Shown: positions 13,423 to 17,250 of the stretch, in pieces | Layout of the letters: each line of letters begins with the position of its first letter | Numbering within the stretch: position 1 is the first letter of the stretch | Origin: a virus | Virus genome (UHGV): UHGV-1575775 | DNA: 19,468 bases | Reading direction: 5' to 3' (one strand) | The notes under the pieces: model-generated | Databases searched by the model: none | Seen by the model: only the letters and a program-made list of their open reading frames with translations | Told to the model about the DNA's origin: nothing | Position numbers and translations under genes: made by a program

Positions 13423-13500
13423 TTATCCACATTATCCACTGGGTAGATCCAATAATCAGGTCCATACAGATCCCAATTAGATCCATATAGATCCCTGATC
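13423..13500 (+). promoter_or_regulatory. Plasmid origin (oriR-like) left part: tandem DnaA boxes plus five GATC (Dam) sites
   Basis: TTATCCACA at 13423-13431 and TTATCCACT at 13432-13440, then five GATC sites in AGATCC-type repeats at 13446, 13469, 13480, 13490 and 13497. A further DnaA-box-like CTATCCACA lies at 13673-13681. Confidence 0.8.
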
Positions 13501-13539
13501 GTTGCAGGCCGCGCCACGTCTGGCTTAGAAGTGTATCGC

Positions 13540-13643
13540 GATGTGTGCTGGAGGGAAAACGATGTGTGCTGGAGGGATAAAAATGTGTGCTGACGGGTTG
13601 CTAATGTGTGCTGGCGGGATATAGGATGTGTGCTGACGGGAAA
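13540..13643 (+). repeat. incC-type iterons: five direct 19-bp RepA-binding repeats
   Basis: Copies of (g/a)atgtgtgctg(g/a)(a/c)ggg begin at 13540, 13561, 13582, 13603 and 13625, phased at about 21 bp, immediately upstream of repA. Confidence 0.9.
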
Positions 13644-13699
13644 GCCTGGGTAGTTATCACCACTTATAAAAACTATCCACACAATTCGGAAAAAGTAAT

Positions 13700-14560
13700 A
13701 TGAATCAATCATTTATCTCCGATATTCTTTACGCAGACATTGAAAGTAAGGCAAAAGAACTAACAGTTAATTCAAACAACACTGTGCAGCCTGTAGCGTT
13801 GATGCGCTTGGGGGTATTCGTGCCGAAGCCATCAAAGAGCAAAGGAGAAAGTAAAGAGATTGATGCCACCAAAGCGTTTTCCCAGCTGGAGATAGCTAAA
13901 GCCGAGGGTTACGATGATATTAAAATCACCGGTCCTCGACTCGATATGGATACTGATTTCAAAACGTGGATCGGTGTCATCTACGCGTTCAGCAAATACG
14001 GCTTGTCCTCAAACACCATCCAGTTATCGTTTCAGGAATTCGCTAAAGCCTGTGGTTTCCCCTCAAAACGTCTGGATGCGAAACTGCGTTTAACCATTCA
14101 TGAATCACTTGGACGCTTGCGTAACAAGGGTATCGCTTTTAAGCGCGGAAAAGATGCTAAAGGCGGCTATCAGACTGGTCTGCTGAAGGTCGGGCGTTTT
14201 GATGCTGACCTTGATCTGATAGAGCTGGAGGCTGATTCGAAGTTGTGGGAGCTGTTCCAGCTTGATTATCGCGTTCTGTTGCAACACCACGCCTTGCGTG
14301 CCCTTCCGAAGAAAGAAGCTGCACAAGCCATTTACACTTTCATCGAAAGCCTTCCGCAGAACCCGTTGCCGCTATCGTTCGCGCGAATCCGTGAGCGCCT
14401 GGCTTTGCAGTCAGCTGTTGGCGAGCAAAACCGTATCATTAAGAAAGCGATAGAACAGCTTAAAACAATCGGCTATCTCGACTGTTCAATTGAGAAGAAA
14501 GGCCGGGAAAGTTTTGTAATCGTCCATTCTCGCAATCCAAAGCTGAAACTCCCCGAATAA
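13700..14560 (+). CDS. repA: Plasmid replication initiator RepA (P1 type)
   Basis: 286-aa ORF flanked upstream and downstream by iterons, with an origin bearing DnaA boxes and GATC sites. The sequence matches my recollection of P1 RepA. Confidence 0.93.
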   Translation: MNQSFISDILYADIESKAKELTVNSNNTVQPVALMRLGVFVPKPSKSKGESKEIDATKAFSQLEIAKAEGYDDIKITGPRLDMDTDFKTWIGVIYAFSKYGLSSNTIQLSFQEFAKACGFPSKRLDAKLRLTIHESLGRLRNKGIAFKRGKDAKGGYQTGLLKVGRFDADLDLIELEADSKLWELFQLDYRVLLQHHALRALPKKEAAQAIYTFIESLPQNPLPLSFARIRERLALQSAVGEQNRIIKKAIEQLKTIGYLDCSIEKKGRESFVIVHSRNPKLKLPE

Positions 14561-14843
14561 GTGTGTGCTGGAGGGCAGCTGCATTCAAAAAATGTGTGCT
14601 GCCGGGAAGGCTTGTCCAATTTCCTGTTTTTGATGTGCGCTGGAGGGGGACGCCCCGCAGTTTGCCCAGACTTTCCCTCCAGCACACATCTGTCCATCAG
14701 TTTTTCCCTCCAGCGCACATGTAATTCTCTGTCTTTCCCTCCAGCACACATATTTGATACCAGCGATCCCTCCACAGCACATAATTCAATGCGACTTCCC
14801 TCTATCGCACATTCTGGTCCTGCATCATCCCTCCAGCACACAT
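14560..14843 (+). repeat. incA-type copy-control iterons: nine repeats, three direct and six inverted
   Basis: Direct copies start at 14560, 14591 and 14632. Inverted copies (ccctccagcacacat and variants) lie at 14675-14689, 14706-14720, 14737-14751, 14768-14782, 14808-14822 and 14829-14843. Confidence 0.9.
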
Positions 14844-14865
14844 CTAATAGCCTCATCGCCATTTC

Positions 14866-14933
14866 TTTACGTGCAATAATTGACGCACGAATCAAAAAAA
14901 GTTGCACGTAGCAGAATCAAACGTACAATTCAC
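14866..14933 (+). promoter_or_regulatory. Putative par promoter/operator
   Basis: 8-bp inverted repeat acgtgcaa (14866-14873) / ttgcacgt (14908-14915) flanks a TTGACG element. A candidate promoter has -35 TTGCAC and -10 TACAAT about 17 nt apart, upstream of parA. Confidence 0.4.
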
Positions 14934-14953
14934 TCATACGAAATGATAAGGAG

Positions 14954-16165
14954 ATGATGATGAAACGCGATTACGGCGGTGTCGGCACCATAGCTCTTCG
15001 TGCAAGCGCATTACTTAAGGCCATGAGTCAGGATATTGAAGATCAGCGCAAAGAGTTCAATCAGACCGAGTATTATCAGACGTTCACTCGTAACGCTGTG
15101 GCAAAGTTGCCGAAGCTGAGCCGCCGCATTGTGGAGCAGGCCATCAAAGAGATGGAAGATGATGGGTACCAGTTCAACAAGAAACAGGTCGGTAACGTTG
15201 AACAGTACGCGCTGACCATCCAGAACGTCATTGATATCTATGCCCACCGTAAGATCCCCAAATATCGCGACATTCACAAATCGCCTTACGTTATTTTTGT
15301 CGTAAACCTGAAGGGTGGCGTATCCAAAACGGTTTCCACAGTCACGTTGGCGCACGCTCTGCGTGTGCATCAGGATTTACTGCGTCACGATCTGCGCATT
15401 CTGGTAATTGACCTTGACCCTCAGGCATCCAGCACAATGTTCCTCGACCATACTCACAGTATTGGTTCCATCCTGGAAACCGCCGCGCAGGCGATGCTGA
15501 ATGACCTGGACGCGGAGACGCTACGCAAAGAGGTGATTCGTCCGACCATCGTTCCTGGCGTAGACGTGATTCCAGCCTCTATCGACGATGGCTTTGTTGC
15601 CAGCCAATGGAAAGAGCTGGTTGAAGAGCATCTTCCCGGACAAAATCAGTACGAAATCCTTCGACGCAATATCATTGATCGTGTTGCGGATGATTATGAC
15701 TTTATCTTTATTGATACCGGTCCACACCTGGATCCGTTCCTGCTCAACGGTCTGGCGGCCAGCGATTTGCTGCTTACCCCTACCCCACCAGCCCAGGTTG
15801 ACTTCCACTCAACACTGAAATATCTCACCCGTCTGCCAGAAATGCTGGAGCAACTGGAGGAGGAAGGCGTAGAACCGCGTTTGAGCGCCAGCATTGGTTT
15901 TATGTCGAAGATGACCGGCAAGCGCGATCACGAGACATCACACAGCCTTGCGCGTGAGGTTTACGCCAGCAACATTCTGGACTCTTCTCTGCCTCGTCTG
16001 GATGGCTTTGAGCGATGTGGCGAGTCTTTCGACACCGTAATCAGTGCCAACCCGCAATCGTATCCAGGCAGTGCAGAGGCGCTGAAGAAGGCACGAACCG
16101 AGGCCGAGCGTTTCACTAAGGCTGTGTTTGATCGAATTGAGTTTGTTAGGGGTGAGGCGGCATGA
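14954..16165 (+). CDS. parA: Partition ATPase ParA (type Ia, with N-terminal DNA-binding extension)
   Basis: Deviant Walker A NLKGGVSKTVSTVTLAHAL; family motifs ILVIDLDPQASST, DFIFIDTGPHLD and RLDGFERCGESFDTVISANP. The stop overlaps the parB start (ATGA). Three tandem ATGs at 14954-14962 make the exact start uncertain by up to 6 nt. Confidence 0.93.
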   Translation: MMMKRDYGGVGTIALRASALLKAMSQDIEDQRKEFNQTEYYQTFTRNAVAKLPKLSRRIVEQAIKEMEDDGYQFNKKQVGNVEQYALTIQNVIDIYAHRKIPKYRDIHKSPYVIFVVNLKGGVSKTVSTVTLAHALRVHQDLLRHDLRILVIDLDPQASSTMFLDHTHSIGSILETAAQAMLNDLDAETLRKEVIRPTIVPGVDVIPASIDDGFVASQWKELVEEHLPGQNQYEILRRNIIDRVADDYDFIFIDTGPHLDPFLLNGLAASDLLLTPTPPAQVDFHSTLKYLTRLPEMLEQLEEEGVEPRLSASIGFMSKMTGKRDHETSHSLAREVYASNILDSSLPRLDGFERCGESFDTVISANPQSYPGSAEALKKARTEAERFTKAVFDRIEFVRGEAA

Positions 16166-17127
16166 AAAAAATAGTTTCCCGTGGACGAGTGCTGGGCAAG
16201 AATAGCTCCGAGTTTGCTCGCATGCTTGAAGGCAGTGAAGGCACCAAAACCTTTACCCTAAAATCTGGCCGCCAGGCTAAATTTTTGCTTACCGTTGTGC
16301 TGAGTGGTGAGATTGAGTCGCGCACGTTCGTTGACCCGGCAGTTAACGGCCGCGATCAGTCTCTGCTCACTCCTGAGTCGGTAAGCGATATTTCCCGCAC
16401 CATTAAATTGCAACAGTTCTTCCCGGCTATCGGCCGTATGGTTGGGGAGCGCATTGAGGTATTGGACGGATCACGTCGCCGCGCTGCGTGTATCTTCAAT
16501 GAAACGAAATTTGAGATTCTGGTGACGAAAGATGAGATCAGCCTGGCAGATGCCCGCCAGCTGGCCATTGATATCCAGACAGCCCGCGAACACACCCTGC
16601 GCGAGCTGGGTAAACGCTTCGAGGTTATGTACGGCAAGAATATGACCAAAGAAGAGATCGCCCGAGCTGAGAACATCTCAAAGGCTAAAGTGACGCGAGC
16701 TTTCCAGGCTGCGGCGGTGCCGGATGAGATGATTGCTGTCTTCCCTGTTGCCAGCGATCTCGCCCTGCCTGATTACCAGTTGCTGCTCCAGATCTCCGAA
16801 GATGCTAACGCTAAAAACGTACCGATTGGAGAACTGGTTGATACGGTGCGCGAGCGAATTGCAGAGACTGAGGGCGCGAAAGAGGATAAAGCGAAGATAC
16901 TGGCTATCTTCAAAGCGGAAAGCAAAAGCCTGAAACCTGCGCCGGTTAAATCTGTAGTGGTAGAGAAGCTGCGAGATTTCTCTGACCGACGCCAGTACGC
17001 ACGAAAGAAGACCGATCCGAAAAAACGGGTAGTCGCCTACGAGTTCTCCAGACTCCCATCTGAAGTGCAAACTGAAATTGACGAAGCAATAAAAAAAATC
17101 ATTGAGAAAATGTCCGCAGGAAAATAA
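16162..17127 (+). CDS. parB: Partition centromere-binding protein ParB
   Basis: Translationally coupled to parA; ParB-like motif VLDGSRRRAA; located immediately upstream of a parS-like site. Confidence 0.88.
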   Translation: MKKIVSRGRVLGKNSSEFARMLEGSEGTKTFTLKSGRQAKFLLTVVLSGEIESRTFVDPAVNGRDQSLLTPESVSDISRTIKLQQFFPAIGRMVGERIEVLDGSRRRAACIFNETKFEILVTKDEISLADARQLAIDIQTAREHTLRELGKRFEVMYGKNMTKEEIARAENISKAKVTRAFQAAAVPDEMIAVFPVASDLALPDYQLLLQISEDANAKNVPIGELVDTVRERIAETEGAKEDKAKILAIFKAESKSLKPAPVKSVVVEKLRDFSDRRQYARKKTDPKKRVVAYEFSRLPSEVQTEIDEAIKKIIEKMSAGK

Positions 17128-17174
17128 ACCTGCTGGTGGGAGGTGGCGTTAGCCCCTCCCCTGCCTAAAATGCC

Positions 17175-17250
17175 CCGCACCGATTTCATTATTAACATTA
17201 TGATTTATATATGTTTTTTAGAAAAATTTCAGACTGAAATTCCCACGGTT
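17175..17250 (+). promoter_or_regulatory. parS-like centromere site
   Basis: Heptamer boxA-like repeats (atttcat at 17183-17189, atttcag at 17226-17232, inverted tgaaatt at 17235-17241) flank an AT-rich core that may bind IHF. A boxB-like hexamer ttccca lies at 17240-17245. The layout parallels P1 parS as recalled. Confidence 0.5.

Follow-up and report, generated by a model that had tools for sequence, protein, structure and literature searches.

The 19,468-nucleotide stretch of the virus genome UHGV-1575775 (hereafter the window) carries the elements of a P1-like replicon followed by a partition (par) system between positions 13423 and 17250, and the question raised by this locus is which partition system has been joined to the replicon. 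P1 and P7 are the classic plasmid pair with a shared replicon and partition systems of different specificity, and the boxB hexamer of the centromere parS and a residue in the C-terminal part of ParB have been known as discriminators for decades. An earlier note, made from the letters of this DNA alone, described the locus as a mosaic of a P1-type replicon and a partition system with a non-P1 centromere hexamer, and proposed that the element may belong to a different par incompatibility group. Here, the region is identified, with a probability of roughly 0.93, as the plasmid-maintenance module of a phage-plasmid of the P1/P7 family (Punavirus, IncY) whose par cassette is of the P7 allele. The combination of a P1-type replicon with the partition system of phage P7 is already known and is not a new one.

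The relationship to P7 extends over the whole module. When the interval 13400-17300 was compared with phage records by megablast, P7 (AF503408 / NC_050152) gave one full-length alignment with 97.5% DNA identity over 3.9 kb, and the original P7 par sequence X17529 was matched as well; the P1 records matched positions 9-1448 of the query only, that is, oriR-repA-incA. Features were transferred from the annotated P7 record, AF503408, after its alignment with the window, and all the annotated P7 features were placed on the window without indels. P7 (also represented by J03308) has the same gene order, oriR-repA-incA-parA-parB-parS, and the same feature map, and neither the genes nor the parS boxes contain any indel relative to it. 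The identity to P7 varies along the module, from 99.8% for parA and 98.8% for repA to 95.5% for parB and 86.5% for the intergenic region between parB and gene 23, the 3' part of parB and the parS spacer being the more diverged parts when the reference P7 is used for comparison.

Local BLAST showed 98.3% DNA identity to P1 for 13408-14847. Homology to P1 breaks off just past incA iteron 1, at 14847, and is found again from 17223, just before boxA2 within parS. Between these points, at 14848-17222, lies the cassette in which the P1 and the P7 types differ, and its junctions are the same in P7 as in the window. Since P7 shares these junctions, the mosaic is the standard P7 arrangement. A novel recombination event at the rep-par junction was also considered and was rejected, as P7 has the identical junction, the P1 homology ending at 14847 in both. 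The description in the earlier note thus holds in that a P1-like replicon, with a RepA 100% identical to that of P1, is joined to a non-P1 par differing at the specificity determinants. What the note did not recognise is that the par region is, throughout, the allele of phage P7, known for decades.

Among the plasmids in PLSDB, 237 have a par of the P7 type and 547 one of the P1 type. The close relatives carrying the same par allele as the window are complete, non-mobilizable plasmids of about 95 kb that are typed as IncY in PLSDB. Even the phage record OP279344.1, named 'Escherichia phage P1' (host MG1655 Z1, 88 kb), has a P7-type par that is 97.7% identical to the window over the full 3.9 kb, and the par type of a P1-like element can thus not be read from the name of its record. 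The rep/par region has been described as a hot-spot of difference, 'RD-4', among P1-like plasmids (Venturini et al., 2019, PMC6906374), and one P1-like element was found to have a parAB 99.8% identical to that of P7 and about 81% identity 3' of parB (PMC6906374). P1-like phage-plasmids with P7 parAB and diverged flanks, e.g., pTZ20_1P, display a pattern like that of the window, although pTZ20_1P is a different element and is likened to it by its description (PMC6906374).

The replicon is shared by P1 and P7. The earlier note listed two DnaA boxes, five GATC sites, five incC iterons, repA, and nine incA iterons, and all of these were found where it placed them when mapped on the P7 annotation (Table 1). 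P1 (AF234172 / NC_005856) has the same layout of iterons, DnaA boxes, and GATC sites. The DnaA boxes show zero differences from P7, and the ten nucleotide differences between the repA genes of the window and P7 are all synonymous. RepA did not match any NCBIfam model, and its membership of the P1 type therefore rests on direct identity. All 14 iterons (five incC and nine incA, each of 19 bp) correspond one-to-one to those of P7 and P1 and follow the P1 orientation pattern, with 4 substitutions in total compared to P7, one of which is in incC copy 13. The iteron consensus gave 12 matches in the window at ≤3 mismatches, while 0.07 would be expected by chance, and four of the five incC iterons fit the consensus at this threshold. 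In P1, the incC iterons also overlap the repA promoter. The sequence features that define an IncY iteron replicon are thus all present: a P1-type RepA, five incC and nine incA iterons, DnaA boxes, and five clustered GATC sites.

When it comes to the partition proteins, the earlier note was right that they differ noticeably from those of P1. ParA is 57% and ParB 40% identical to the P1 proteins, while the identities to P7 are 100% and 98.1%, respectively. The two nucleotide differences between the parA genes of the window and P7 are both synonymous, and ParA matches the NCBIfam models for ParA, SopA, and partition-RepA. The start of parA has three consecutive ATGs (14954-14962) after an AGGAG ribosome-binding site; the P7 annotation uses the first (403 aa), while PGAP uses the third on related plasmids (401 aa). 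parA lies upstream of parB and overlaps it by 4 bp. ParB contains the TIGR00180 ParB domain (NCBIfam), and its residues 137-316 match the P1 ParB(142-333) structures 1zx4 and 2ntz with E ~1e-30 (phmmer against PDB). Six residues differ from P7, written from the window to P7 as N160S, N219S, G223E, T284S, E315G, and K321E. The corresponding genes differ by 37 synonymous and 6 non-synonymous changes, giving a ratio of non-synonymous to synonymous substitution rates (dN/dS) of 0.045. Neither parA nor parB is disrupted, and the purifying selection on both is strong. A Walker-type ParA of about 400 aa encoded upstream of parB in the same operon, a ParB with a helix-turn-helix domain as well as a dimer domain at its C-terminus, and a parS of composite layout place the system in the P1par family.

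In line with a check proposed in the earlier note, ParB and parS were aligned against P1, P7, and pMT1, and ParA was compared with P1 and P7; neither parS nor ParB turned out to be identical to that of P1. The layout of parS is still P1-like, as had been claimed: the order B1-A1-IHF-A2-A3-B2-A4 and the spacing are the same as in P1, with no insertion or deletion over the whole stretch from boxB1 through boxA4. The parS sites of P7, nine P7-type plasmids, P1, and pMT1 can be aligned with that of the window without gaps, and in this alignment boxB2 reads TTCCCA in the window and in all P7-type sequences, TCGCCA in P1, and TCACCA in pMT1. The hexamer given for P1 in the earlier note is correct, as both annotated P1 boxB sites read TCGCCA. 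The hexamer TTCCCA that was reported for this DNA is correct for the right-hand boxB2, but not for the left-hand boxB1, which is GCCCCG and differs from the GTCCCG of the reference P7 as well.

In total 19 positions of parS differ from P7, but they are unevenly distributed, with 2 of 39 positions changed in the ParB boxes versus 17 of 44 elsewhere (Fisher p = 4e-4). The two box changes, in boxB1 and in boxA4 (GTTTAAC, while P7 has GTTTCAC), are both outside the A2-A3-B2 core; boxA1, A2, A3, and B2 are identical to those of P7. Base 17233, between boxA2 and boxA3, is A in the window and G in P7. The predicted IHF-binding site TAACATTATGATT has four differences from P7, all at degenerate positions of the consensus, which is here taken to be YAANNNNTTGATW, and the site retains the YAA....TGAT(T/A) elements of this consensus.

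It has been shown by published structures that the A-boxes are read by the helix-turn-helix domain of P1 ParB, while the B-box is read by loops of the C-terminal dimer domain (PMC2910045, PMC5016525). A summary of the genetics describes boxB as the discriminator, A2-A3-B2 as sufficient for ParB binding, and B2 as the sole B box setting incompatibility, B1 being reported as dispensable in P1 both for ParB binding and for setting incompatibility (PMC10999674). According to the same study, published in 2024 by the Lobocka laboratory, the second base of BoxB2 is recognised by one aspartate of P1 ParB (PMC10999674). In the alignment residue 288 of P1 ParB is an aspartate, and it corresponds to Asn278 in pMT1 and to Arg277 in the ParB of the window; Arg277 is common to the window, P7, and the nine P7-type plasmids. 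The aspartate that reads BoxB2 is said to be this Asp288, a result attributed to Dabrazhynetskaya and colleagues in 2009.

Both halves of the putative discriminator pair, boxB2 and Arg277 of ParB, are the P7 versions. P7 par specificity is predicted because of this, meaning that ParB of P7, but not that of P1, would serve the site. The partition systems of P1 and P7 reportedly neither cross-function nor cross-exclude, as Ludtke and colleagues in 1989, Hayes and Austin in 1993, and Radnedge and colleagues in 1996 are said to have found. From the sequence, partition incompatibility is predicted with P7-type plasmids, but not with plasmids having a P1-type par. Replication (IncY) incompatibility is predicted with both P1 and P7, since the replicon is the same, with an identical RepA and near-identical iterons. 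With a ParA and a ParB that are essentially those of P7, TTCCCA as boxB2, and the discriminator-aligned residue as in P7, the system has the sequence characteristics of P7par. The divergent boxB1 is seen as an allele difference that leaves the system within P7par, because boxB1 is polymorphic among P7-type sites and is reported to be dispensable in P1 (PMC10999674).

P1 itself has the same type Ia par organisation as the window, but differs in having TCGCCA as boxB where the window has TTCCCA (B2) and GCCCCG (B1), in having Asp288 where the window has an arginine, and in the length of ParB, which is 333 aa in P1 and 321 aa in the window. The par system of pMT1 from Yersinia pestis, another member of the P1par family, has the same parS layout and a ParB about 68% identical to that of the window, but it differs in its boxB and its discriminator-aligned residue, and its replicon is IncFIB.

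Some observations weigh against the identification as a P7-type module. The difference between the boxB1 hexamers is a C in the window for the T of P7 at base 2, the position that is read by the discriminator residue in boxB2, and boxA4 has A for C. The six substitutions in ParB include T284, which is located in the C-terminal DNA-binding domain near the discriminator region; the corresponding residue is S284 in P7, V295 in P1, and a threonine in pMT1. One base change in one boxB can reportedly sometimes alter the specificity, an observation ascribed to Dabrazhynetskaya and colleagues in 2005. A scan of 14800-17400 with the sigma-70 consensus found no promoter-like site, and the par promoter is therefore placed only by analogy with P1, where Ppar and the ParA operator occupy the equivalent interval according to the P1 annotation.

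Taken jointly, boxB1 GCCCCG, boxA4 GTTTAAC, the diverged IHF spacer, and ParB T284/E315/K321 might be the determinants of a new specificity or incompatibility subtype derived from P7par, with a ParB-parS pair that no longer fully cross-reacts with P7. The low identity to P7 of the region following parB compared to that of parA, the base affected in boxB1, and the presence in the B-box-binding domain of a threonine that is shared with pMT1 and not with P7 would all fit such a subtype, and if it existed it would represent a naturally occurring intermediate stage as centromeres of the P1par family diversify, and two P7-type phage-plasmids could coexist as far as partition is concerned. It is nevertheless considered very improbable, as the window agrees with P7 at boxB2, at boxA2 and boxA3, and at the ParB residue that corresponds to P1 Asp288, and these include both the only B box reported to set incompatibility and the boxes sufficient for ParB binding (PMC10999674). 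The exchange of serine and threonine at position 284 is furthermore a conservative one, and the variants do not co-vary in nature.

The latter became apparent from a survey of 37 P7-type sites, comprising the window, P7, nine plasmids, and 26 IMG/VR contigs, and representing 19 distinct haplotypes. The pattern used to find the IMG/VR sites prescribes boxA1 as well as four of the six bases of boxB1, and the unbiased columns are those to the right of boxA1 only. In these sites boxA3 is invariant, boxB2 is TTCCCA in 37/37, and boxA2 is conserved in 36/37. boxB1 is GTCCCG in 33/37, GCCCCG in 3/37 including the window, and GTCCTG in 1/37, the search pattern fixing four of its bases. boxA4 is more variable, with GTTTCAC in 19 sites, ATTTAAC in 10, GTTTAAC in 4, and ATTTCAC in 4, so that a TTTAAC-type boxA4 is found in 14/37. 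The variants combine differently in related plasmids: CP020936 encodes an identical ParB, yet has P7-like boxB1 and boxA4, while CP012497 combines a P7-like ParB C-terminus with a TTTAAC-type boxA4 (ATTTAAC), and boxB1 GCCCCG is also found on P7-like spacer backgrounds (L016 and L024). Co-evolution of the C-terminal ParB substitutions with the changes in the parS boxes was rejected for this reason. The 173 bp from 17128 to 17300, which hold parS, recur with 100% identity in CP056621, NZ_CP135714, and NZ_JBLWKF010000003, three complete plasmids that are typed as IncY, are about 95 kb long, and come from independent isolates. The changes in boxB1, boxA4, and ParB are thus read as neutral or nearly neutral polymorphism that is shuffled by recombination, and not as a new specificity.

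Least probable of all is that parS is decaying and non-functional, with the element relying on other stability functions and the changes in boxB1 and boxA4 being early degradation, for although 2/6 ParB boxes differ from the reference P7 and an apparent insertion sequence has been gained nearby (from 19414), the par genes are intact and strongly constrained by purifying selection, the essential core A2-A3-B2 has no change in the window and is conserved across P7-type sites, the parS interval is unchanged in the three independent plasmids, and the TTTAAC-type boxA4 is common.

If the module is a P7-type one, its probable mode of action can be outlined from the P1 and P7 literature, the replication and partition steps being those established for P1. 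RepA bound to the five incC iterons, together with host DnaA at the flanking DnaA boxes, would open the origin, and the five GATC sites would need Dam methylation for this opening to take place. The nine incA iterons would both titrate RepA and pair with the origin ('handcuffing'), thereby keeping the copy number near one. In partition, which is of the type Ia ParABS kind, ParB would bind to parS just downstream of parB, its helix-turn-helix domain contacting the boxA heptamers and its C-terminal dimer domain the boxB hexamers. IHF would bend the spacer, and the left arm (B1-A1) would thereby be kept in one complex with the right arm (A2-A3-B2-A4). The parS complex would then stimulate nucleoid-bound ParA-ATP, and the sister plasmids would be moved apart. 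ParA would also repress the par operon.

Table 1. Features of the maintenance module and their positions in the window.
Feature	Position	Strand	Remarks
Two tandem DnaA boxes, TTATCCACA and TTATCCACT	13423-13440	+	Left end of oriR; read directly; position of the protein_bind feature for DnaA in both P7 and P1
Five GATC (Dam methylation) sites	13446-13500	.	In oriR; each equals annotated P7 'Dam methylation site 1-5', no differences
incC, five 19-bp RepA iterons (copies 14-10)	13540-13643	+	In oriR; P7 and P1 annotation
repA, replication initiator, 286 aa	13700-14560	+	100% amino acid identity to RepA of P1 and P7
incA, nine RepA iterons (copies 9-1; three +, six -)	14560-14844	.	Copy-number control locus; P7 and P1 annotation
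Putative par promoter/operator region	14848-14953	+	Left edge of the cassette differing between P1 and P7; placed by position
parA, partition ATPase of type Ia (Walker type), 403 aa if the first of three ATGs is the start	14954-16165	+	100% identical to P7 ParA
parB, centromere-binding protein, 321 aa	16162-17127	+	98.1% identical to P7 ParB
G+C-rich hairpin GGGAGGTGGC-GTTA-GCCCCTCCC	17138-17160	+	Between the parB stop and boxB1; fold -21 kcal/mol, z = -2.9 versus shuffles
parS	17172-17254	+	Directly downstream of parB; gap-free alignment with P1, P7, and pMT1
boxB1 (left-arm hexamer) GCCCCG	17172-17177	+	In register with P7 boxB(1) GTCCCG and P1 TCGCCA
boxA1 heptamer ATTTCAT	17183-17189	+	Same as P7 boxA(1)
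IHF-binding site (predicted) TAACATTATGATT	17193-17205	+	In register with the annotated IHF sites of P7 and P1
parS core, 'parS small' (boxA2, boxA3, boxB2)	17226-17245	+	All three boxes as in P7
boxA2 ATTTCAG	17226-17232	+	
boxA3 CTGAAAT	17234-17240	+	
boxB2 TTCCCA	17240-17245	+	Exact match to annotated P7 boxB(2)
boxA4 heptamer GTTTAAC	17248-17254	+	GTTTCAC in P7

The hairpin that precedes parS is conserved in P7-type sequences, with a single 1-bp gap compared to P7, and is absent from P1, where parS begins a few bases past parB. It is not followed by a T-run on its 3' side and was not flagged by the terminator scan of 14800-17400, which gave two hits only, both inside parB and at chance level. 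The hairpin may be the terminator of the par operon or a stabiliser of the 3' end of its mRNA.

The remaining window is P1/P7-family backbone, from tail and baseplate genes to ban, tRNAs, dmt, and hrdC, with gene 23 after par, and the window as a whole aligns with P7 over 83% of its length, at 97% identity. Directly to the left of oriR, in 12552-13407, the window loses its nucleotide homology to P1 as well as to P7, and the match is back at 13408. This interval contains an open reading frame (ORF; 12972-13373, 133 aa, phrog_1453) whose product is 51% identical to P7 Upf62.1 / P1 UpfA, so that the window differs from P7 in having another allele of the upfA-like gene here. Unlike the join between rep and par, this is a genuine, lineage-specific allele replacement.

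Two other intervals have no nucleotide match in P7. In 4064-5252 there is a minus-strand ORF (4082-4909, phrog_200 'lipoprotein') where P7 has terB and upf69.x, while 7997-8731 is found inside a methyltransferase ORF (6884-9472, 862 aa), which suggests that an internal domain of the methyltransferase has been swapped. Three tRNA genes are located on the minus strand at 3979-4054, 6055-6130, and 6133-6208, and were called as Met (CAT), Thr (TGT), and Asn (GTT), respectively. The first of these is annotated as tRNA-Ile in the P7 record, a label presumably reflecting a tRNA with a CAT anticodon that is modified to read AUA. The homology to P7 and P1 ends at 19413. The last 55 bases (19414-19468), which begin with GGCACTGTTGCAAATAGTCGG, are taken to resemble the left end of IS26 with its terminal inverted repeat. 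They interrupt an ORF starting at 19160, a homologue of P7 upf55.8, and the gene is intact in CP056621.1, which has an identical par region. With the whole window as query, hits were obtained at 23,643 places in more than 5000 plasmids, which is what a ubiquitous insertion sequence would be expected to give.

The importance of the finding is small beyond correct annotation, and its main use is in typing: the element should be called IncY with a P7-type par. The survey adds, in a modest and descriptive way, that natural P7-type centromeres keep the A2-A3-B2 core while boxB1, boxA4, and the IHF spacer drift, a pattern in agreement with the report that only this core is required for ParB binding (PMC10999674).

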